A DNA stretch of 64,000 bases, from the IMG/VR virus record IMGVR_UViG_2775507207_000001, positions 1 to 64,000 of that record; one strand, written 5' to 3'. Made by a program: the position numbers and the translations under genes. Position 1 is the stretch's first letter. The number at the start of each line of letters is the position of its first letter. Below are positions 2,806 to 12,521 of this stretch, in pieces. Source of the DNA: a virus. Lineage: Duplodnaviria; Caudoviricetes. The notes under the pieces are model-generated. The model saw only the letters and a list, made by a program, of their open reading frames with translations. It had not been told where the DNA came from and did no database searches.

Positions 2806-3344
2806 GCCGCTTTCCTCCGGTGTTCGATAGCGAGTTGGTCCATCAGGCGCTGGTGGTAGGTGTTGCGGGCTTCTGCGGCAGACCATGGACGGATGGTTTC
2901 AACCATGGGTTCGATGCCGACCAAACAATCCCGGATAGCCGGATCGGGTGGCATGAGGTCGCGGCGTTCGGTAGCCAGCGCTATCAGGTCGGCCTTGTGG
3001 ACGCAGGCGGGGAGTTCTGGTGCTATGTCGAACCGATCACAGACGCGCCACCAGATACAGTCCTCGAAGTGCTCATAGGCACTGATCCATTGCTTGAGTG
3101 GCCGCGTCATGTCGCCCAGGTACGCCTCGGGTGCGTCATGAAGTAAGGCCGCGAGTTTGTGTTCTTCCGGCACCAGCTCGGCGACGATGCAGCTGTGCTG
3201 TGCCACGCTGTAGAACTCGCGGGTGTGACCGTTGAAGCGGCACAGGTGGGCCAGTGCGTGCGAGATGTCTCGTGGGTCGATCATGTCGGCGTCGGGTTCG
3301 AGCAGGTCAAAGTGTTTGCCTGAATGGGTCAGGATCCAGTTCAT
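2802..3344 (-). CDS. HD-domain phosphohydrolase (YfbR-like 5'-deoxynucleotidase family)
   Basis: Motifs CRFNGH, YSVAQHS, LLHDAPEAYLGD. Confidence 0.88.
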   Translation of the reverse strand: MNWILTHSGKHFDLLEPDADMIDPRDISHALAHLCRFNGHTREFYSVAQHSCIVAELVPEEHKLAALLHDAPEAYLGDMTRPLKQWISAYEHFEDCIWWRVCDRFDIAPELPACVHKADLIALATERRDLMPPDPAIRDCLVGIEPMVETIRPWSAAEARNTYHQRLMDQLAIEHRRKAA

Positions 3345-3739
3345 GCTGCGTCTCCCAACTCGAATGGGTCCAGCTGGGCAGCCATGTTCAGCGCCTTGTC
3401 ACGTAAGGTAAGTGCTTGAGTTGCCTGGCTGTCAGATCTCACCGCGCGGAAGGTGTCGGCCGCAAGGTTGAGCTTTTCGGCAATGGCTAACAGGGTGAGG
3501 CGATCCAGTGGCTGATGGTCCAATATCAGTTGCAGGCGCCGACACCGCTCGGAGATCTGCTCCAGAGCGGTAGAGCCCGCTGACTCCCCCTCGTCCATCC
3601 CTTCAATGAATCCTTGTGCGTGTCCTTCGTCGTAGCCCTGAGCCAGACCATCCGTTAAGCCGCCTCTGTAGCCGATCCAATAAAGGATCGCGAGCGCGAT
3701 AACGATGGTGATCAGTGCGCAGATTTGAATTACGGTCAT
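3341..3739 (-). CDS. Hypothetical phage protein with N-terminal TM helix
   Basis: GGAG RBS and ATG at 3739; TM segment followed by GxxxG repeats; overlaps the HD gene start. Confidence 0.7.
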   Translation of the reverse strand: MTVIQICALITIVIALAILYWIGYRGGLTDGLAQGYDEGHAQGFIEGMDEGESAGSTALEQISERCRRLQLILDHQPLDRLTLLAIAEKLNLAADTFRAVRSDSQATQALTLRDKALNMAAQLDPFELGDAA

Positions 3740-3788
3740 GTGGTGTGCTCCTGGTGGTTTTGTTGGCTGGTGGTGGCAGCCGTTGGTG

Positions 3789-4115
3789 TTACTGCTCTGG
3801 CTCGGTTGAATCAGTTTGTGGTCGCGGCATGTCCTCATCCGCCCTGTAAGCGCGGATATCAATCAGTGCCGCGACATGCTTGATGTGGGCATACCTCAAC
3901 GCCTTGACGCTGTGATCCAGGGTGGTCACCGGCAGCTGAATACGGCCGCTGTTGATCGCCTCAGTGAAGGTCTTTTCGTTGAGGTTCTTGAAGTAATGCA
4001 CGCGCAGCTTTTCCAGTGGGATAAGCACGTCGCCGAAGAGTTGGTGCAGCATCTCGACGGTTGCGCTATCTGGCGCGGGTTGCAGCCGTAGCGGTGTTTG
4101 ACTGTTGTTGCTCAT
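3789..4115 (-). CDS. prtN: Pyocin activator PrtN-family protein
   Basis: TVEMLHQLFGDVLIPLEKLRVHYF...IQLPV...HIKHVAALID resembles the PrtN family pattern. Confidence 0.72.
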   Translation of the reverse strand: MSNNSQTPLRLQPAPDSATVEMLHQLFGDVLIPLEKLRVHYFKNLNEKTFTEAINSGRIQLPVTTLDHSVKALRYAHIKHVAALIDIRAYRADEDMPRPQTDSTEPEQ

Positions 4116-4284
4116 GGGCGGCGGCCTCCTTGCGTTTGAGTCGTGAAGGGTGGTTCCAGGCATTCAGGCAATGGCGTTTGGTCAGCTCCCTCAGATGCTC
4201 CGGCACTTCGAGGAGCGCGGCGTTGCGCTCCTCGCGTGTGTGCATAGCGACGATCTGGCGGGCGTACTCCCTAGGCCATGTCAC
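4066..4284 (-). CDS. Hypothetical phage protein
   Basis: 72-aa ORF (WPREYARQIVAM...VPEHLRELTKRH) packed within the early operon. Confidence 0.65.
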   Translation of the reverse strand: MTWPREYARQIVAMHTREERNAALLEVPEHLRELTKRHCLNAWNHPSRLKRKEAAAHEQQQSNTATAATRAR

Positions 4285-4555
4285 GGTTATCTGCCGGGAT
4301 GGCTGGCAGTTCGAGGCCCAACTGTTCGGCGAGCCAGCGGATGCCGGCTTGGCGGACCTTGGTCGACTGGCTGTACTGCATGCCGGCGGTTTCGTGGTAC
4401 CAGTTGCTATCCTTGACTCGCAGGTAGTCTCGGTCCCGCACCGGGAAGGCCGGGAGATTGCGGTCGTTGAGCAGGCCCTTTTTACGCATTAGAGCGATCA
4501 GCTTTGGGCGTGTGAGGCCGAAGTACTTGGCGGCTTTTTCCAGGCTCCGTTCCAT
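4271..4555 (-). CDS. Phage antirepressor, KilA-C/ANT domain
   Basis: SLEKAAKYFG...LIALMRKKGLL...TKVRQAGIRWL resembles the KilAC domain; GGAGG RBS. Confidence 0.75.
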   Translation of the reverse strand: MERSLEKAAKYFGLTRPKLIALMRKKGLLNDRNLPAFPVRDRDYLRVKDSNWYHETAGMQYSQSTKVRQAGIRWLAEQLGLELPAIPADNRDMA

Positions 4556-4564
4556 CTCGGCCTC

Positions 4565-5146
4565 CTAGGCTGCGTGCGCGGCGGGTGTCGCCACGGCAGC
4601 CAGATGGGTGATGGACTCGGCCACCATGGAGTAGATCTCCACGTCGCTGCCGTACACTGTGAAGCACTTGGTACGCGGCTTTCTGACGCCGATGCTCATG
4701 ATGGTGGTGATGCCAGTGCGGGTTTTGTTGCGATGGATTGCCAGGTTGATAGGTTGCTCAAAACCCATGTCGAGGCTCAGCGCGCCGCCGGTTTGCACCA
4801 GGTCGAACACACGCTGCTTGTGTTCAATTTCGAAGACGCCGTAGCGGCGGTCAGCGTGCGGCACAGACGACGGATCGCTTGGACTCGCTGGCCCGTTGAC
4901 GATCTCCTCGATGAAGTCCGCAAGCTTAAGGTGCATCTTTTTGCTGTTTGTCAGGGTCAGCGTGTGGCGTTCGCTTCCCAGCTCAACAGTGAAGTGTGTG
5001 TCGGCTTTACGGCGCTCAACTTTCAGGCGGAAGGCTAGGGCCTCACGCTGAACTTCGGCACGCAGCAGGTGGTTGAAGGTTTCGGTTAGGTTTACCTGAG
5101 CCTTAAGCAGGGTCAGGGAGCGGTTGTCGAGTTTGTACTTGCTCAT
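4565..5146 (-). CDS. Hypothetical phage early protein
   Basis: 193-aa ORF with GGAGG RBS, coupled to the upstream gene. Confidence 0.7.
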   Translation of the reverse strand: MSKYKLDNRSLTLLKAQVNLTETFNHLLRAEVQREALAFRLKVERRKADTHFTVELGSERHTLTLTNSKKMHLKLADFIEEIVNGPASPSDPSSVPHADRRYGVFEIEHKQRVFDLVQTGGALSLDMGFEQPINLAIHRNKTRTGITTIMSIGVRKPRTKCFTVYGSDVEIYSMVAESITHLAAVATPAAHAA

Positions 5147-5319
5147 GCCGCTTGCCCTCCGCCGTTTGGATTGAATGGGGCGGGCGCGTGGCGTTCTTTC
5201 AGCTTTGCTTTGGACGCGATGAATGTGCAGCCTAGGTCTTGCGCCAAGCGGCGGATTTCAAAGATGCGGGAGGGGTTCGCAGCAGCCGGGTGGACGTGCA
5301 GGGTGGCTGTGGTGTGCAT
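5143..5319 (-). CDS. Small protein, first gene of the leftward early operon
   Basis: GAGG RBS, ATG at 5319; 58 aa; directly downstream of the left operators. Confidence 0.6.
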   Translation of the reverse strand: MHTTATLHVHPAAANPSRIFEIRRLAQDLGCTFIASKAKLKERHAPAPFNPNGGGQAA

Positions 5320-5358
5320 AGTTTTGCCTCGCTCTGTGGTGGAAGAGTGAGACAAATA

Positions 5359-5394
5359 TCAACTGACGGTTGTTATTTGTCAACCAGCGGTTGA
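5359..5394. promoter_or_regulatory. Left operator region (two repressor sites)
   Basis: TCAAC-TGACG-GTTGT (5359-5373) and TCAAC-CAGCG-GTTGA (5380-5394), the same palindrome as in the cI-cro interval. Confidence 0.8.
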
Positions 5395-5510
5395 TTAGTG
5401 GCCTTGGGCTATATTTCTTTGGCGCGACGTCCTTGGTGAATGGTAGTGTGGTAAGAGCTGAATATTGCATTAAAGCTAATGGAACTAATTAGGTCAGGGG
5501 ATTGATCGAA

Positions 5511-6896
5511 ATGAAGCTTAAAAATACTAATATCGTAATACCCGAAGGCAATATTTTTCTTAACGACAGACTCAAACGGAAAAAAAGTGTAGATAACTTA
5601 GGTGGGTTATTAGAGAAAGTAGTTTCTCCGTTAGTTTTCTCAGTGAATGCACCGTGGGGCGCGGGTAAAACTACATTCATGAGAATGCTTCATTCATCGT
5701 TAAGTGCTTCAGAGGCGAAGTCGATTTATTTCAGCGCATGGGAAACTGACTTTGCCGTTGATCCATTGTTGGCTTTTATCGGAGAAATGAACGTCGGACT
5801 TGCTTTTTTTATCAATGGTAATCAAGAGAAAAGTAAAGCGTGGGCCAAAGCAAAGGCGGCGGGAACGCATTTGATGCGTAGAGGTATACCAGTTGGGGTG
5901 AAGCTCGCAACTGCTGGTATCCTGGATCTTGATAAAATAATTGAAGATGAAACTTCAAAGCTGACGGAAGCGCTTGCTAAGGATGTCATAGATGCTTACT
6001 CCAAAAATAAGCAAGCGATATCTGTATTCAAGGAAAATGTTGCAAAGGTTTTAAAGAGCGAAGACGGATCCATAGGGAAGATGTATATCTTTGTAGACGA
6101 GCTTGATAGGTGTCGACCTACTTATGCAATAGAATTGCTAGAGCGAATAAAACATTTGTTGGATGTCGAAGGATTGGTATTTATATTGGCTTTGGATAAA
6201 CAGCAATTGGCGCACAGTGTGAAGGCAGTATATGGTGCGGATTTTGATGCGGTAGGATATCTCAAGCGGTTTATAGATGTTGAATTTACTTTGCCCCCCG
6301 CTGATACAGTTGATTTTGTAGGCGATTTGTTGACAAAGTTTGAGCTTGATAAATATTTCGATAAACGTAAAAAAGGAGAAACAGTACACGACAAGGAAAG
6401 CTTGCTTGGGATGCTGCGGACAGTAACTCGCCGAATGTCACTCAGAAGTATCGAGCAGTTGGTTGCTAAAGTTAAGCTGGTTTCTCTTTCGGTAAAAGAG
6501 AATCAATTTTTTTATCCAGAATTTGTTATATTTTTATTAGTGGTCAAAGAGAAATATAACGAAATTTACTTGGAGTTTTCGCAAGAGACTTCAAGTGGTA
6601 CGGATCTAACTGCTCTTCTCGTTGAGGTAGTTCCAGGTGATGAGTTGCTTTGGACTAGGCAGTATCTAGAAGGTGTGATCATCGCAGGCAAGATGAGGGC
6701 GGCACGCACGTGGTCTGAAAATAGAATCCAAGCGTTAAAGGATATTTACAATTCTCAGCAAGCTACCGAGCATCAAAAGAATGATGTCGGTAGAATATTG
6801 GATGTAGTTGATCAATCTACTAGGATGGGTGGAAACGTGCCATTACGGACAATTTTGGATCGGATAGATATGCTTTCTGATTTTGAATTCAATTGA
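5511..6896 (+). CDS. KAP-family P-loop NTPase (candidate phage exclusion/defence)
   Basis: Walker A APWGAGKT, YFSAWETDF, Walker B IFVDELDRCRP, YLKRFID; AT-rich. Confidence 0.9.
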   Translation: MKLKNTNIVIPEGNIFLNDRLKRKKSVDNLGGLLEKVVSPLVFSVNAPWGAGKTTFMRMLHSSLSASEAKSIYFSAWETDFAVDPLLAFIGEMNVGLAFFINGNQEKSKAWAKAKAAGTHLMRRGIPVGVKLATAGILDLDKIIEDETSKLTEALAKDVIDAYSKNKQAISVFKENVAKVLKSEDGSIGKMYIFVDELDRCRPTYAIELLERIKHLLDVEGLVFILALDKQQLAHSVKAVYGADFDAVGYLKRFIDVEFTLPPADTVDFVGDLLTKFELDKYFDKRKKGETVHDKESLLGMLRTVTRRMSLRSIEQLVAKVKLVSLSVKENQFFYPEFVIFLLVVKEKYNEIYLEFSQETSSGTDLTALLVEVVPGDELLWTRQYLEGVIIAGKMRAARTWSENRIQALKDIYNSQQATEHQKNDVGRILDVVDQSTRMGGNVPLRTILDRIDMLSDFEFN

Positions 6897-6924
6897 GATA
6901 ACTATCTTGGAGTGGCTCTTTGTG

Positions 6925-7650
6925 TCACTCCGGGATAAAAGATCCTACTACCTTGCCGCAAATATGAGTTTCTTCAGTTATATCAATAATTGGATATTGC
7001 GGATTTATTGGTTTTAAAAACTGTCTTCCTGCATCCTCAACTAAAACCTTAAAAGTAGCTTCATTTGTTCGAGGTAGCCTAGCTATTACTCTGTCGCCCG
7101 GCTTTGTCTCGGCTTCCGGATCTACAAAAATTATGCATCCGGTTGGATAGCTTCGTCCTGGTCCAGGATTTGTCATTGAATCACCAAGTACTTTAAGAGC
7201 GTAGCCATTTTCACTTATGGTTACTGGGCATGACAACCAGTTTTCTCCATCAAATAGTTCAACACTAGCTTCACACCACGCTCCAGCTTGTACCCAGGAG
7301 ATAAGTGGAACCTTGCCAAAGCGGCGAGTAATTTCTCCTATATTAGATTGCTGTAAGTTTGACAGTTTGATCAAATTGTTTTTGATTACTGAGTTTTTAG
7401 GCAGCACTCCATATTCCAACCATTCCCGTCTCACATTCAGCCAAGAGCACAATGCGACCATGCTATCTGCTTCAGCGACAGCATCGCCATTCAGCCATTT
7501 ACTAATCGCTTGTGGGCTTTTGTGCACGCCTAAGCTTTTCAGTTGTCTGTGTACGTCCACCCCACGCCCCCGGGTGCGTACACCGGCATCGTTGAGTGCT
7601 TCGTGAAGGCGCGCCGTGAAAGCTGCCCGTAGCTCATTCTTATCAACCAT
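6925..7650 (-). CDS. CI-like repressor (HTH plus S24 peptidase)
   Basis: HTH SPQAISKWLNG; VQAG cleavage site; GDSM and ATFKVL catalytic motifs. Confidence 0.92.
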   Translation of the reverse strand: MVDKNELRAAFTARLHEALNDAGVRTRGRGVDVHRQLKSLGVHKSPQAISKWLNGDAVAEADSMVALCSWLNVRREWLEYGVLPKNSVIKNNLIKLSNLQQSNIGEITRRFGKVPLISWVQAGAWCEASVELFDGENWLSCPVTISENGYALKVLGDSMTNPGPGRSYPTGCIIFVDPEAETKPGDRVIARLPRTNEATFKVLVEDAGRQFLKPINPQYPIIDITEETHICGKVVGSFIPE

Positions 7651-7713
7651 GAGTTGATACTCTCACAGGGGTTGCGCAATAGTCAGTTGATGTTAATATC
7701 AACCGCGAGTTGA
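7643..7713. promoter_or_regulatory. Right operator region (three repressor sites)
   Basis: TCAAC-CATGA-GTTGA (7643-7657, overlaps cI start), GCAAT-AGTCA-GTTGA (7676-7690), TCAAC-CGCGA-GTTGA (7699-7713). Confidence 0.82.
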
Positions 7714-7728
7714 TAAATGGAGGTTGCC

Positions 7729-7989
7729 ATGTTGGACCCCGCAGATTTTCCGAACGCCATCGCGTTCGCATTTGAAGCAGTAGGCGGCATCGGAGCCGCC
7801 GCCAAGGTATGTGACAGGAGTTACCAAGCACTCAATAAATGGCGCTTGGCTGCCAGCCTTCCGCGCACCGATTACACCGGTGAAACCCACTACGCAAAAC
7901 TTTTAGCGACTGCTGCAGAGCAAAAGGGCAACGCGTTTGACGCTGCCTGGTTGCTCAACGCATCGGCCCCGCAGAAAGCTGCAGAGTAG
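7729..7989 (+). CDS. Cro-like repressor
   Basis: HTH GGIGAAAKVCDRSYQALNKW, divergent from cI; GGAGG RBS. Confidence 0.85.
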   Translation: MLDPADFPNAIAFAFEAVGGIGAAAKVCDRSYQALNKWRLAASLPRTDYTGETHYAKLLATAAEQKGNAFDAAWLLNASAPQKAAE

Positions 7990-8083
7990 ATAGAAAAAAG
8001 GCGACCCAAGGGCCGCCCAGTTCCTCCCGGCACACACCACCACAGTGCTGTCGGGTCGCGACGAAGGTAGGAGGGCACACCAC

Positions 8084-8158
8084 ATGCAAACCACCTCCCT
8101 TTATCGCGCTGCCAAGACACGGATGTCTTGGGTTGCTGCCTTTTCCACCACAGATTAG
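8084..8158 (+). CDS. Possible 24-aa leader peptide (MQTTSLYRAAKTRMSWVAAFSTTD)
   Basis: GGAGG followed by GCACACCAC-ATG within the structured cro-cII intergenic region. Confidence 0.3.
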   Translation: MQTTSLYRAAKTRMSWVAAFSTTD

Positions 8159-8317
8159 GCAGCTGTTGCGCCAGAGGTGAGCAACGGATTGTTCGCCTCG
8201 GCACGGTGCCGGTTTTGATCCCTAGATCTTGCCGGCGTTTGGGCCCTTTCAAGCCACGCGGCAAATGTATCACCACTACACGTCGCGGGGCACTGGCAAC
8301 TTAGTAGGATTAATGCC

Positions 8318-8836
8318 ATGAGCCGAGTAGCTTTAAGCTGTGTTGATCGAGCGCAAAAGGAAGTACTGACGCTCGAATTAGCCTTGTACCACGCCGCACG
8401 GGACTATCCCGGCGGTGCCGCAGCAATCGCCGCCACCACCGGCCGCAATGCCACCACGCTGCAGCACAAGTTGTCTCCCACCCATCCCTCGCACACCGTC
8501 AACATTCAGGAGTTCGGCGAGATCCTCGAACTGACCAAGGACCGCCGCATTCTCGATGCGGTGCATGCCCTTGTCGGCGACACGATCTGGCAGGAACTGG
8601 CTGAGGCGTACACCAATGACATGCCTGAGACCCTGACCACGGGTATCGCCATGTTTTTCCGGCAGGTTGCCGATTTGTCCGAAACCTGGGCCAAGCATAT
8701 TGGCGACGGCAAGGTCGATGACCGTGAGCTGGCCGAGATCCGCCAGTTAGTGTTTCGCGGTATCCAGGGTTTGTTGGGCATGTACAACCGCGCCCGCTAC
8801 GTCAACCAGACGACTTGTGGGGTGGAACGTGGCTGA
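8318..8836 (+). CDS. CII-family phage regulatory protein
   Basis: YPGGAAAIA...TLQHKLSP...H pattern; position after cro. Confidence 0.8.
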   Translation: MSRVALSCVDRAQKEVLTLELALYHAARDYPGGAAAIAATTGRNATTLQHKLSPTHPSHTVNIQEFGEILELTKDRRILDAVHALVGDTIWQELAEAYTNDMPETLTTGIAMFFRQVADLSETWAKHIGDGKVDDRELAEIRQLVFRGIQGLLGMYNRARYVNQTTCGVERG

Positions 8837-9056
8837 TATCGCTGACTTCGCAAATGACCTGGTGCAAGAGCGCATAGATCAGGCCGTCGCTGCACGCCTG
8901 GCGCTGATGCCCAACACGGCTCAGCATTCGCTGATGTTCTGTGACGAATGCGATGGCCCCATTCCCGAGGCCCGTCGTTTGGCACAGCCCGGTTGCACGC
9001 TCTGCATTGAGTGCAAGACCGCCGATGATCAGAGGGCTGCCCGTTATGCTCGATGA
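8829..9056 (+). CDS. TraR/DksA C4 zinc-finger protein
   Basis: ADIADFAND, CDECDGPIPEARRLAQPGCTLCIEC. Confidence 0.9.
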   Translation: MADIADFANDLVQERIDQAVAARLALMPNTAQHSLMFCDECDGPIPEARRLAQPGCTLCIECKTADDQRAARYAR

Positions 9057-11262
9057 TGTGATCAATCAGTTCGCGGACTATGGTCTCGAGCCCGCTCAAC
9101 CCTTGGTATTCGGCAAACTCACCCGCTGCAAAACCACCCAGGACAAAGGCAAAGAAAAAAACGGCTGGTACGTCATCCACGAACACCGCACTGAAAAAAA
9201 CGAGACGCTGATCTTCGGCAGCTTCGGTGACTGGCGTTCTGGCGACACCCTGAAGATCAAGGTTAAACCCGGACGTATGAGCCCCGAGGAGCGCGAGGTC
9301 ATGCGCGCTCGCCAGGAGGATGCCAAGCGTAAAGCTGCCGAGATCGCGGCCAACGCATCACGCCGAGCGGCCAACCGTGCTGCCGGTCTGTTCAAGCGAA
9401 TGCCCGAAAAGGGTAAGAGCGCTTATCTGGATCGAAAGCAGATCGTCGGCTTCAAGGTTCGCTATGCGCCACGTACTGGCGCATTTTTGGTGCCCATGTG
9501 CAACGTCCGTGACCAGATCGTCGGCCTGCAGGTGATCTTTCCAGCGAAGCATGAAGACACTGGGCGGGATAAGCAGTACTGGCCGCCCGGTATGTCAAAA
9601 GAGGGCGCTTTCCACCTGATCGGCCCCCACCCAGAGCCAGGCGAACCGGTGCTGGTGTGTGAGGGCTACGCCACGGGCGCAAGCTTGCACATGGCGACGT
9701 CGCTCACTGTTGCTATCGCCTTCGACGCGGGCAACCTGCTGCCTGTCTCCAAGGCCATGCGCGAGCGCTTCCCTGGCTGTCCACTTATCATCTGCCGGGA
9801 CGACGACTGGAAAACCAAGCGTCCCAATGGTGGCCCCTGGAACCCCGGCGAAGAGAAAGCCAACAACGCCGCGCTGGTTGTCGGTGGTCAAGTCGTCTCC
9901 CCGGTGTTCTCCGGCGAGCGCGAGATCAAGTGGACCGACTTCAACGACTTGCACGTCGCCGAGGGGTTGGAGGCCGTCCGCCGCCAGGTGCTTGCGGTGG
10001 TCAAGCCTCCTGCAGCGGGTGGCTGGAAGGATCAACTGGCCCGCACCGAAAATGGCTCCCTGATCGCGCACATGCAAAACGTCGAGCTGATCCTGGGCAA
10101 TGACGAACGCTGGGCCGGTGTCATCGGCTACAGCGTGTTCAGCTCCAAGATCGTCAAGCTGCGGTCTGCGCCCTTCGGCGGCGGTGCCGGCGACTGGGCT
10201 GACATTGACGACATGCGAGTGATGAAGTGGCTCGCGCAGCAATACAACCTGCGGGTCAAAGCCTCCCATGTGATCGAGGCGGTCAGTGTGGTTGCCCACG
10301 ACCATGCCTTCCACCCGGTGCGTGAGTACTTGGAGAAGCTGGAATGGGATCGCGTGCCACGCATTGAAACCTGGCTGACCGACGTGCTGGGCGTTCAGGC
10401 CAGCGAGTACTCGGCAAAGGTCGGCAAGCGCTGGCTAATCTCGGCTGTGGCTCGGGTTATGCGCCCAGGCTGCAAGGCCGATTCTGTGATGATCCTCGAA
10501 GGCGGGCAGGGCGCCGGTAAGTCCACGGCCATGGGCGTCCTCGGCGGCGAGTGGTTCATGGACACGCCCTTTGCCCTCGGTGATAAGGACAGCTTCCAGG
10601 CGATTCGCGGCAAATGGATCGTCGAGTTGGGCGAGCTGGACAGCTTCAACAAGGCGGAAAGCACCAAGGCCAAACAGTTCTTCTCTGCTTCCACCGATAC
10701 CTACCGAGAGAGCTACGGCCGCAGAACGAATGACGTGCCACGCCAGTGTGTTTTCGTGGGCACCACCAACCAAGAGGAGTACCTCAAGGACGCCACGGGC
10801 AACCGCCGCTACTGGCCGGTGTTCTGCAACAAGGTCGATCTGGAGCAACTGCGCGAGATCCGCGATCAGCTGTGGGCTGAGGCGCTGTTCTGCTTTGAAG
10901 CGGGCGATATCTGGTGGGTGAATAAGGACGAGTCCAAGATGTTCGCCGAGGCTCAAGACGAGCGTTTCGTGGTGGATGAATGGGAGGGGCCAATCCTGGC
11001 CTGGATGGAAGAGTCGCAGATCGGCGAAACCGCCACCGGCAATGAGATTCTGACCCAGGCGCTGAAACTGGACTTCGGCCATTGGGGTAAACCCGAACAG
11101 ATGCGGGTCGGGGCGATCATGCACCGGCTGGGCTGGCGCAAGCGGCGTATGCCTGCTCTGCCAAAAAGCGGTGTGCGGCCATGGGCCTATGAAAAGCCTG
11201 CGGGTTGGGGGCGTGTGTCTGCGTTGCAGCAGGCGGTGATCGAGGAGCCTTGCTTTGATTAA
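9046..11262 (+). CDS. Toprim primase fused to VapE-type helicase (replication protein)
   Basis: Toprim CEGYATG...DAGNL...DDD...DFND; Walker A GGQGAGKST; ELGELD; GTTN; GNRRYWP. Confidence 0.9.
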   Translation: MLDDVINQFADYGLEPAQPLVFGKLTRCKTTQDKGKEKNGWYVIHEHRTEKNETLIFGSFGDWRSGDTLKIKVKPGRMSPEEREVMRARQEDAKRKAAEIAANASRRAANRAAGLFKRMPEKGKSAYLDRKQIVGFKVRYAPRTGAFLVPMCNVRDQIVGLQVIFPAKHEDTGRDKQYWPPGMSKEGAFHLIGPHPEPGEPVLVCEGYATGASLHMATSLTVAIAFDAGNLLPVSKAMRERFPGCPLIICRDDDWKTKRPNGGPWNPGEEKANNAALVVGGQVVSPVFSGEREIKWTDFNDLHVAEGLEAVRRQVLAVVKPPAAGGWKDQLARTENGSLIAHMQNVELILGNDERWAGVIGYSVFSSKIVKLRSAPFGGGAGDWADIDDMRVMKWLAQQYNLRVKASHVIEAVSVVAHDHAFHPVREYLEKLEWDRVPRIETWLTDVLGVQASEYSAKVGKRWLISAVARVMRPGCKADSVMILEGGQGAGKSTAMGVLGGEWFMDTPFALGDKDSFQAIRGKWIVELGELDSFNKAESTKAKQFFSASTDTYRESYGRRTNDVPRQCVFVGTTNQEEYLKDATGNRRYWPVFCNKVDLEQLREIRDQLWAEALFCFEAGDIWWVNKDESKMFAEAQDERFVVDEWEGPILAWMEESQIGETATGNEILTQALKLDFGHWGKPEQMRVGAIMHRLGWRKRRMPALPKSGVRPWAYEKPAGWGRVSALQQAVIEEPCFD

Positions 11263-11620
11263 GCGAATCGATGAGATGCTCAAACTGTGGGCGCAGGATC
11301 TGCATTCGCCTGTGCCAGACGGTGCTGGCGGGCCGAGTGGCGGCAACATGATCGCCATGCTGATGGAGTGCAAAGGGGAGTTGATACGCGGCACGCGTGG
11401 AAGTCGGGTGCTGCTGGATGAATCGGCCGACATTGAGCTGATCGTCAACAAGCACTTGCCGCCGCAGCTGTCGCTTGTCGTACGCGAGCACTACTGCAAC
11501 CACGAAAGCTTCCTGTCGCAGAAGTACACCCACTGCGGATGCAGCCGGGATACCTATTACCAGCGGCTCCATGAGGCACACCTGCACATCGCCGGCATGC
11601 TGATGGGGAAGGCTGCATGA
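11255..11620 (+). CDS. Putative late-gene regulator (Q-like antiterminator)
   Basis: IDEMLKLWA N-terminus, C-terminal HTH-like SRDTYYQRLHEAH; sits between replication and lysis/packaging genes. Confidence 0.55.
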   Translation: MIKRIDEMLKLWAQDLHSPVPDGAGGPSGGNMIAMLMECKGELIRGTRGSRVLLDESADIELIVNKHLPPQLSLVVREHYCNHESFLSQKYTHCGCSRDTYYQRLHEAHLHIAGMLMGKAA

Positions 11621-11644
11621 TCCTCGGCATCACTCCGCGTGCCT

Positions 11645-11925
11645 CTGTCCTACTGTCCTGCTTTGTCCGACTGCCATTTGGCGCAGTCGGACAGGCGCAG
11701 GCCGCGCCGTTGCTGGGCTGTCCTACTGTCCAACCTTTACCCACCCCACGCACACATGAGCATAGCGGGCACGTAGTCGCGCCCATGGCGCGCACGCGTG
11801 CTTTTAGCTTTCTCTCTATACACAAGAGAAAAGTAATAAAGGTAGGACAGTAGGGCAGAGCCCTGTATTTAGGCGTCTGTAGCTGTCCTACTCCGATCTA
11901 GAATAGTGGGACAAGTAAGACAGGG
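11645..11925. repeat. Putative replication origin: TGTCCTAC-type octamer iterons in both orientations around an AT-rich core
   Basis: About 11 copies (11646, 11654, 11664, 11686 inv, 11719, 11727, 11842 inv, 11850 inv, 11884, 11906 inv, 11915 inv); AT-rich 11800-11840. Confidence 0.7.
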
Positions 11926-12102
11926 CACCAGAAGCGATAGCCGATAGAATGCGTTGTCCCTGCGTCGCACCTGCGTCATACCTGTATCGCACCCATATTG
12001 CGCCATGGCATTAAAACTCCCTTGCTGCCACCGGAATCCACCTGTAAAAAGTACCCATCTTCGATAGGTGCGACCGCAAGCAGCGGGACACACCACCACA
12101 CT

Positions 12103-12128
12103 GAACCCGGCCATTGCGCCGGGTTTTT
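12103..12128 (+). terminator. Intrinsic terminator ahead of late genes
   Basis: AACCCGGC-cattgc-GCCGGGTT followed by a T run. Confidence 0.7.
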
Positions 12129-12158
12129 GCGTTTATGGAGGGGGCAGAAGTGATTTTT

Positions 12159-12521
12159 TCAGTTCTCGGAGGGTTCGGCTTTTTCGGCTCTTTCCTTGAG
12201 CACGGTCGCTCGCCAAATTGCTGCGAACAGAGTTCCGGCGCCAAGGAATACGAAGAAATTCATGAAATACACAAAGAGTTCGATCACTTCAATTCTGCTC
12301 ACTGGCCCATTCGACGTTGCAAAGGTTGCAAAACCATATGCACTTCTAGCCATTACGAATGCCACCATGACCAATACGGCTACTTTGGCGCCGAATGACC
12401 GAATCTTCCGTATCTGCATTGCCGCACTCTGTCTGCTCTCGGGGCTGGCGAACAGCCAGGCAACGATACCGCCTGAGATTACAGACGCGATTACTGTTTG
12501 AACGAAAAGCGATGTATCCAC
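12159..12521 (-). CDS. Moron-like 3-TM membrane protein
   Basis: AAGGAG RBS then GTG at 12521; three hydrophobic segments; antisense to late operon. Confidence 0.7.
   Translation of the reverse strand: MDTSLFVQTVIASVISGGIVAWLFASPESRQSAAMQIRKIRSFGAKVAVLVMVAFVMARSAYGFATFATSNGPVSRIEVIELFVYFMNFFVFLGAGTLFAAIWRATVLKERAEKAEPSEN

Follow-up and report, generated by a model that had tools for sequence, protein, structure and literature searches.

In phage lambda, the N/nut system combines a boxA sequence (YGCTCTTWA) located 5' of a hairpin with a small protein that has an arginine-rich N-terminus and is encoded after nutL. Phage antisense and immunity RNAs such as c4 of P1/P7, CI of P4 (RF01695), sar of P22, and OOP of lambda possess loops that pair with ribosome-binding regions. 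Here we describe recurrent CACCAC(A) sites in RNA hairpin loops of both early operons of a virus (Caudoviricetes), studied in a window of 64,000 nt that is part of a 72-kb virus record (IMG/VR record IMGVR_UViG_2775507207_000001) and whose early region has a lambdoid layout. We tentatively favour the reading that these sites form an RNA-RNA recognition code linking both early operons. Four of the loops lie between the cro-like gene (7729-7989, plus) and the gene for a phage-186-type CII protein (PF06892; 8318-8836, plus), in a noncoding stretch of ~320 nt that is as conserved as protein-coding positions and recurs in hundreds of viral contigs as well as in prophages from 76 species-representative genomes.

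Relatives were gathered by two routes. With the CII-like gene as query, a protein search returned 469 viral contigs, 80 of which were retained, and a search for the exact pattern of one leader hairpin (H3, see below) in one genome for each of 185,579 species gave 76 loci. All but one of these genome loci are titled Pseudomonas (fluorescens, syringae-group, fragi, lundensis, and others, with 0 aeruginosa), the last being a gammaproteobacterial metagenome-assembled genome, and every usable one (72/72) carries the whole leader together with the CII gene. The comparison set comprises 133 distinct leader-plus-cII sequences of one close family, with CII identity of 83% or more in the viral set. Across this set, the leader (323 nt) has a mean identity to the window of 0.909, compared to 0.919 at cII codon positions 1 and 2 and 0.674 at position 3, and 145 of its 323 columns are at least 99% identical. 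Sense CACCAC occurs on average 4.82 times (range 3-6) per 335-nt leader of the right early promoter (PR), while antisense GTGGTG was found in 0 of the 133. The whole window holds 32 plus-strand and 38 minus-strand copies, i.e. 70 per 128,000 strand positions, and in its early untranslated regions CACCAC stands in the transcribed sense only. An earlier note on this DNA had proposed CACCAC-loop hairpins at nut-like positions of the phage transcripts; all CACCAC sequences quoted there are present, including CACCACCAC at 12091, and in relatives the motif is both conserved and biased to the sense strand.

The leader is also structured. RNAalifold predicted 83 pairs from 74 distinct viral sequences, 17 of them with compensatory changes. 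Long-range pairs were dropped before pair counting, and in the remaining 70 pairs (11 helices) 98.6% of cells are paired, compared to 33-42% when partners are slid by 1-3 columns. Two-sided changes occur at 16 pairs, a number reached by 0 of 500 shuffles (mean 8.8), and many stems never vary when counted by helix. Across the 133 leaders, loops are near invariant while stems covary. Hairpin H1 (8026-8055, plus) keeps its loop CACCACA (8038-8044) in 133/133, with the pair 66-76 being AU in 49 cases and GC in 16. The long hairpin Hs (8057-8108, plus) exposes the apex GCA-CACCACA-TGC, kept in 128/133; its apex 12-mer GCACACCACATG is at 8075-8086 (plus), and its helix 4 shows double changes at 7/7 pairs. 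H3 (8135-8163, plus) reads GCTGCC..TCCACCACAGA..GGCAGC, and its loop TCCACCACA is present in 74/74 sequences of the unbiased viral set, the figure used here because the other 72 sequences were picked by a pattern holding that loop. H6 (TGTA-TCACCAC-TACA; 8266-8280, plus), a hairpin not listed in the earlier note, has the loop TCACCAC at 8270-8276, with nCACCAC kept in 130/133. Further CCACCAC hairpins within cII (8430-8460) were not counted, since synonymous sites there are only slightly more conserved than their neighbours. The earlier note had also read two GGAG(G)...ATG stretches as translation starts. The one at 3739 (minus) coincides with the start region of a left-operon gene, p132, discussed below, but the ATG at 8085 is the apex of the long covarying hairpin and not a start codon. 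A small open reading frame (ORF) there (GGAGG-GCACACCAC-ATG, 8070-8087) was ruled out: GGAGG (8070) pairs with CCTCC (8094) in a covarying stem, and beyond the ATG relatives have indels of lengths not divisible by three.

The left operon displays the same loop. Its promoter PL (TTGACA-17-GATATT, 5355..5383, minus) is accompanied by operators that vary between immunity types, while the transcribed leader, CTCACTCTTCCACCACAGAGCGAGGCAAnAnnATGCACACCACA, hardly varies among 67 distinct sequences, 66 of which contain CACCAC. The hairpin CTCACTCT-TCCACCAC-AGAGCGAG (5351..5328, minus) lies at the extreme 5' end of the transcript, with the Shine-Dalgarno (SD) sequence GAGG directly after it. This motif precedes a homologue of the first gene of the operon, p58 (phrog_35204; 5143-5319, minus), in 104/104 loci where it was found; it was not seen at 49 of 153 loci, 29 of which had less than 3 kb of flank. 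The p58 start itself, ATGCACACCACA (5308..5319, minus), has GCACACCACA in common with the Hs apex, and at p58 codon 4, 77/89 Thr codons are the rare ACA, so that CACCACA is preserved. Further downstream, the 5' untranslated region (5'UTR) of the membrane protein gene p132 (3341-3739, minus) carries at least two CACCAC in 36/36 distinct sequences. Among these, its hairpin GGCTG-CCACCAC-CAGCC (3781..3765, minus) has an invariant loop on a stem that covaries to GGACTG/CAGTCC, and GGAGCACACCACATG upstream of the gene is kept. The nutL- and nutR-like positions of the earlier note thus hold strand-specific, conserved elements in RNA hairpin loops of both early operons, and, as at nut sites, the same hairpin loop recurs in the left and right early transcripts.

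The likeness between the two operons extends beyond the loops. The p132 translation start region (3748..3737, minus), from SD to AUG, is GCACACCACATG and therefore identical to the Hs apex 12-mer, while TTCCACCACAGA is common to H3 and the PL hairpin, with 18 nt shared in some relatives. The longest same-sense stretch shared with the genome's own right leader measures 9-18 nt for the PL 5'UTR of p58 (n=112; 12 nt in 59) and 8-14 nt for the p132 5'UTR (n=66; 12 nt in 60), compared to 5-9 nt in the opposite-orientation control. The window has two separate shared 12-mers, and 14 of 300 shuffles reach even one. Moreover, the shared sequence changes in concert. In a lineage of five genomes (L113, L123, L134, L141, L150), the Hs apex is GCAAACCAAATG or GTAAACCAAATG in place of GCACACCACATG, and a whole-genome search found G[C/T]AAACCAAATG exactly twice in each, on opposite strands and 2.8-2.9 kb apart, the two copies being the Hs apex and the p132 start region. 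The p58 start of this variant lineage is ATGCAAACC in 3/3 loci read. In a second lineage (L052, L112), both sites diverged differently and GGAGCACACC is still common to both. The canonical 12-mer was found in 62 of 121 sampled Pseudomonas genomes, many copies being plus/minus pairs 3-6 kb apart in prophages; 12 isolated copies read in other Pseudomonas genomes lie mostly within ORFs and thus give no sign of a host regulon. An identity of 8-18 nt that covers the p132 start codon and changes in concert is more in keeping with RNA-RNA pairing than with a protein that binds the loops.

The minus strand of the cro-cII gap carries terminator-like and promoter-like signals that could supply the pairing partner. 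Directly after cro lies H0, GGGCGGCCC-TTG-GGTCGCC followed by T6 (8018..7993, minus; on the plus strand, A6 precedes the hairpin), with 8 pairs, 6 of them GC, and then TTTTTT, as in a Rho-independent terminator. The A-run and hairpin are found in 131/133 leaders, and the mismatch in H0, A.C when read on the plus strand, becomes a G.U pair on the minus, so that wobble pairs work on the minus strand only. No family-supported minus-strand ORF was found to the right of H0 within the stretch annotated, which extends to 11620. Some 250 nt right of H0, TGnTACATT (8272..8264, minus) matches the extended -10 pattern TGnTAnnnT and is a candidate promoter; it is present in 131/133 sequences by regular expression and in the other two by eye, with only n varying apart from TGnTAAATT in two sequences. 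Changes in H6 are confined to its 3' arm, as expected if its 5' arm also serves as the -10 element. From these signals we infer an antisense 'anti-leader' RNA of ~260 nt (8258..7993, minus), in which UGUGGUG would occupy the loops facing H1, Hs, and H3; its predicted fold has -114.7 kcal/mol (z -2.81).

If the gap (7993-8317) is indeed read on both strands, the plus strand would give the structured leader of the CII-like gene and the minus strand an RNA of ~260 nt starting at the extended -10 and ending at the terminator. The antisense UGUGGUG loops would be complementary to the PL 5'-terminal hairpin, to the first codons of p58, and to the p132 hairpin and start-codon region, and pairing with these sites in trans would block translation or destabilise the left-operon mRNA, while pairing in cis with the PR leader would lower expression of the CII operon. 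Any change in Hs alters the effector and its cis-target together, therefore only the trans-target must follow, which is the concerted change seen. Taken further, the cro-cII gap might be a two-strand RNA hub of the lysis-lysogeny switch, in which the sense leader monitors the host Gac/Rsm state by means of its two RsmE/CsrA-type hairpins and the SD and so sets CII translation, while an antisense small RNA silences the left operon (the antirepressor-like KilAC protein, the PrtN-like activator, p58-p193, and p132) in trans through loop-loop pairing, as an RNA-based second layer of immunity whose loops coevolve with their targets. We consider this fuller picture possible but doubtful.

Several observations weigh against an RNA-RNA code. 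Minus-strand transcription and pairing are our deductions from sequence signals: the candidate promoter has no -35 element, and sigma-70 scans returned no minus-strand promoter in 7960-8700 apart from a weak match within cII. Both the wobble pairs (467 G.U cells compared to 31 A.C) and the fold z-score (-5.02 for plus, -2.81 for minus) favour folding of the plus strand, therefore it is mainly the sense leader whose structure is under selection. Segments of the PL 5'UTR that match the leader stand in the opposite order there, so that only separate loop contacts are possible with the PL 5'UTR, and H3 did not track small changes of the PL loop. The concerted change probably reflects a single evolutionary event within one clade. 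Public sequencing runs cover the region as contigs only, the single certain RNA run having contigs over 5642-7701 only, and contig ends coincide with places where immunity types diverge.

Apart from the CACCAC loops, the leader seems to offer sites for host proteins of the Rsm/CsrA type. An ANGGAX hexaloop placed on a stem is described as a high-affinity RsmE/CsrA site, and ACGGAU as the hcnA loop, in excerpts of Duss et al. 2014 (PMC4005645). H2 (CCAAGAC-ACGGAT-GTCTTGG; 8112-8131, plus) and H4 (8174-8199, plus) both present the hexaloop ACGGAT directly on a stem (C-ACGGAU-G and A-ACGGAU-U, respectively), in accordance with ANGGAX, and a third hairpin (GGCA...TGCC; 8295-8317, plus) displays the cII SD (AGGA) within its loop. 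These three retain GGA in 131/133, 132/133, and 133/133 sequences, respectively, while their stems covary. Judging from these loops, the host Rsm (Gac/Rsm) system probably controls translation of the CII-like protein; no phage cII leader is known as an Rsm target, although the literature was not searched for one.

The main alternative to RNA-RNA recognition is a phage RNA-binding protein, p58 and/or p193, that reads the CACCAC(A) loops either as an N-like antiterminator or as a translational operator protein for p58, p132, and cII, and we regard it as unlikely, albeit as the most serious competitor. Identical loops on different stems in both early operons are what such a reader would require, the hairpins lie 14-45 nt 5' of three start codons, and an untranslated leader of 330 nt, exposed to Rho, would be a job for an antiterminator. 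Further, the PL hairpin precedes p58-p193 wherever it was found, and the two reading frames overlap, the start of p193 (phrog_15582; 4565-5146, minus) overlapping the stop of p58. The model of p58 (predicted local distance difference test, pLDDT, 74.7) is a small beta-alpha-beta fold with a disordered tail, for which no fold match was found. For p193 (pLDDT 86.3, two beta4-alpha repeats), Foldseek ranks the single-strand binders PURA, MRP1/MRP2, and Whirly first (E 7e-4 to 9e-3), but at template modelling (TM) scores of 0.18-0.28, the hit with E 7e-4 scoring 0.19, and VIA-align gave Z up to 6.7 to unrelated proteins and Z 4.8 to Whirly. The likeness to PUR and Whirly is thus weak, and a single-strand-binding fold of modelled p193 may be taken as a lead only. 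Neither p58 nor p193 has a Pfam family, an NCBIfam family, or a PDB sequence match, and the protein atlas places them in unnamed clusters only; the p193 family is rare (2/401 class-level genomes). As a separate observation, His8 is invariant among 40 p58 homologues, and His10 and Cys31 are each present in at least 90%, which might indicate a small metal site.

What sets this locus apart from an N system is the absence of its defining features, although the positional analogy to nutL/nutR stands. Neither the two early leaders (PL and PR) nor the p132 5'UTR contains a boxA-like sequence at up to 1 mismatch to the consensus YGCTCTTWA. Neither candidate protein is arginine-rich at its N-terminus (p58: 3 R and 0 K in the first 25 residues; p193: 1 R and 3 K), and no RNA-binding fold stands out; the N-like reading of the earlier note thus gains little support. 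H5, a stem with a variable insert (8208-8236, plus), is weakly terminator-like, but a U-run follows it in the window and few relatives and is missing from most, leaving no conserved intrinsic terminator in the sense leader; Rho-dependent sites lie beyond such prediction. The late site which the earlier note had counted among the hairpins is present at 12091, in a CA-rich linker that leads into an intrinsic terminator (12087..12131, plus); it is kept in only 58 of the 72 late leaders whose terminator was located (77 distinct ones in all), the rest being merely C+A-rich. Antitermination at these sites, as the earlier note had inferred, therefore lacks a boxA-like sequence, a conserved intrinsic terminator, and a conserved late site. 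Moreover, an identity of 12-18 nt that includes the AUG and changes in concert at two sites exceeds what binding to a loop would need.

A second alternative, which appears improbable, is that the motifs act on host machinery without a dedicated phage factor, be it by docking of Rho or the ribosome (S1), as a put-like RNA that binds RNA polymerase, or as a decoy for a host factor in the PR leader. The leader is indeed long and untranslated, with unpaired loops that are C-rich and G-poor, every relative has a late leader rich in C and A (mean C+A 0.75), and the two consensus RsmE/CsrA hairpins imply that host RNA-binding proteins are probably engaged. In addition, the PL element sits at the extreme 5' end, ~340-450 nt separate the PR start from the PR element, and HK022 putL/putR are placed alike according to excerpts of PMC9378689. 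However, neither Rho nor S1 needs an exact heptamer, yet the loops are identical in 128-133 of 133 leaders. The PL 5'UTR has a single hairpin, whereas put is defined by two stems in an RNA of ~70 nt; the 12 isolated 12-mer copies that were read give no hint of a host regulon, and a concerted change at two sites is unexpected for a fixed host target. Finally, that the likeness merely reflects shared ancestry (a duplicated segment) together with codon and composition bias, the leader being kept for its own fold and DNA sites without cross-talk, is very improbable: ACC is the preferred Thr codon, the cII copies of CCACCAC are only slightly raised in conservation, and the relatives are one close family with many invariant stems, but the leader matches cII codon positions 1 and 2 rather than position 3, the strand bias is strict, rare ACA is kept at p58 codon 4, and the same two substitutions occur at two sites ~2.8-2.9 kb apart.

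The remaining early region follows the lambdoid plan. Between p193 and p132, the left operon encodes a KilAC-domain protein (4271-4555, minus) and a PrtN/excisionase-like protein (3789-4115, minus), and the S24 repressor gene is located at 6925-7650 (minus). The CII gene is followed by genes for a DksA/TraR zinc-finger protein, a primase-helicase, and then a PA0613-family protein (11255-11620), after which a short late leader is closed by a terminator at 12106-12131. Between PL and the repressor gene, a low-GC plus-strand ORF (~5512-6896) has a P-loop motif and appears KAP-NTPase-like by eye; it is missing from most relatives and is therefore probably a moron or defence gene. The PA0613-family gene is followed by ~430 nt of conserved noncoding DNA (11620-12060) that contains six or more repeats of the GTCC(T/C)AC(T/C)GTCC type, in both orientations, and then TTGCTG-17-TAAAAA; together with the PrtN-like gene, this arrangement resembles the control region of R/F-pyocin clusters. 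The protein p132 has an N-terminal hydrophobic helix and weak, sub-cut-off matches to FliH-type NCBIfam models. A C-terminal Ala-Ala is common to p58, p193, p132, and the PA0613-family protein (gene ends 5143, 4565, 3341, and 11620); one terminal Ala is accounted for by GCATGA start/stop overlaps, and the pair could otherwise be an ssrA-like ClpXP signal.

Early-gene control in temperate Pseudomonas phages outside P. aeruginosa is little studied. No cultured-phage record matches the leader (blastn, 11-base words), and the wider region matches only one unannotated fragment. Likewise, no Rfam family was found at E up to 5 in 3300-12400 under permissive thresholds, and searches of main texts on phage hairpins, Pseudomonas prophage nut sites, and antitermination RNA elements gave no published account of the CACCAC element. 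The mechanisms that this locus might offer are control by an antisense RNA acting in trans, for which compensatory variants exist in nature, an input of Rsm/CsrA to the CII decision, and an alternative to N-type control. If the RNA model is true, the natural pair GCACACCACATG and GCAAACCAAATG would be a ready-made specificity swap, of use in experiments and for orthogonal RNA regulators.

Among known systems, lambda N with its nutL and nutR boxB hairpins is similar in having one shared loop just after PL and just after cro, with the first left-operon gene following the left site. It differs in its boxA, its arginine-rich protein, and the conserved terminator downstream, and the right leader described here has four loops, with further copies at the p58 and p132 start regions. 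HK022 put, as given in excerpts of PMC9378689, likewise has a cis-acting RNA at the 5' end of the PL transcript and a relative of it, with shared sequence, a few hundred nt downstream in the PR transcript; however, put folds into two stems over ~70 nt and binds the beta' zinc domain of RNA polymerase, whereas the left element here is a single 24-nt hairpin beside an SD and the shared part is a heptaloop. The CsrA/RsmE targets hcnA 5'UTR and RsmZ share the ACGGAU hexaloop on a stem (H2, H4) and an SD GGA in a loop (excerpts of PMC4005645), a likeness that covers the GGA loops only and not the CACCAC loops.

The window also contains a C4-type antisense RNA (RF01695; 41894-41980, minus; 82.7 bits) with an ORF start ~50 nt downstream, a second and separate RNA regulator. 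It was ruled out as a pairing partner because it has no GUGGUG, and the C4 covariance model (RF01695, clan CL00128) gave no match at E up to 5 in 3300-12400. As in c4, P4 CI, sar, and OOP, the loops of the proposed small RNA would pair with ribosome-binding regions of an operon holding an antirepressor-like gene, and, like lambda OOP, the candidate would be cis-antisense to the cII transcript. The candidate differs from all of these in its length of ~260 nt, its three or four identical loops, its position across from the cro-cII leader, and its proposed trans action, which would be directed at the left early operon.

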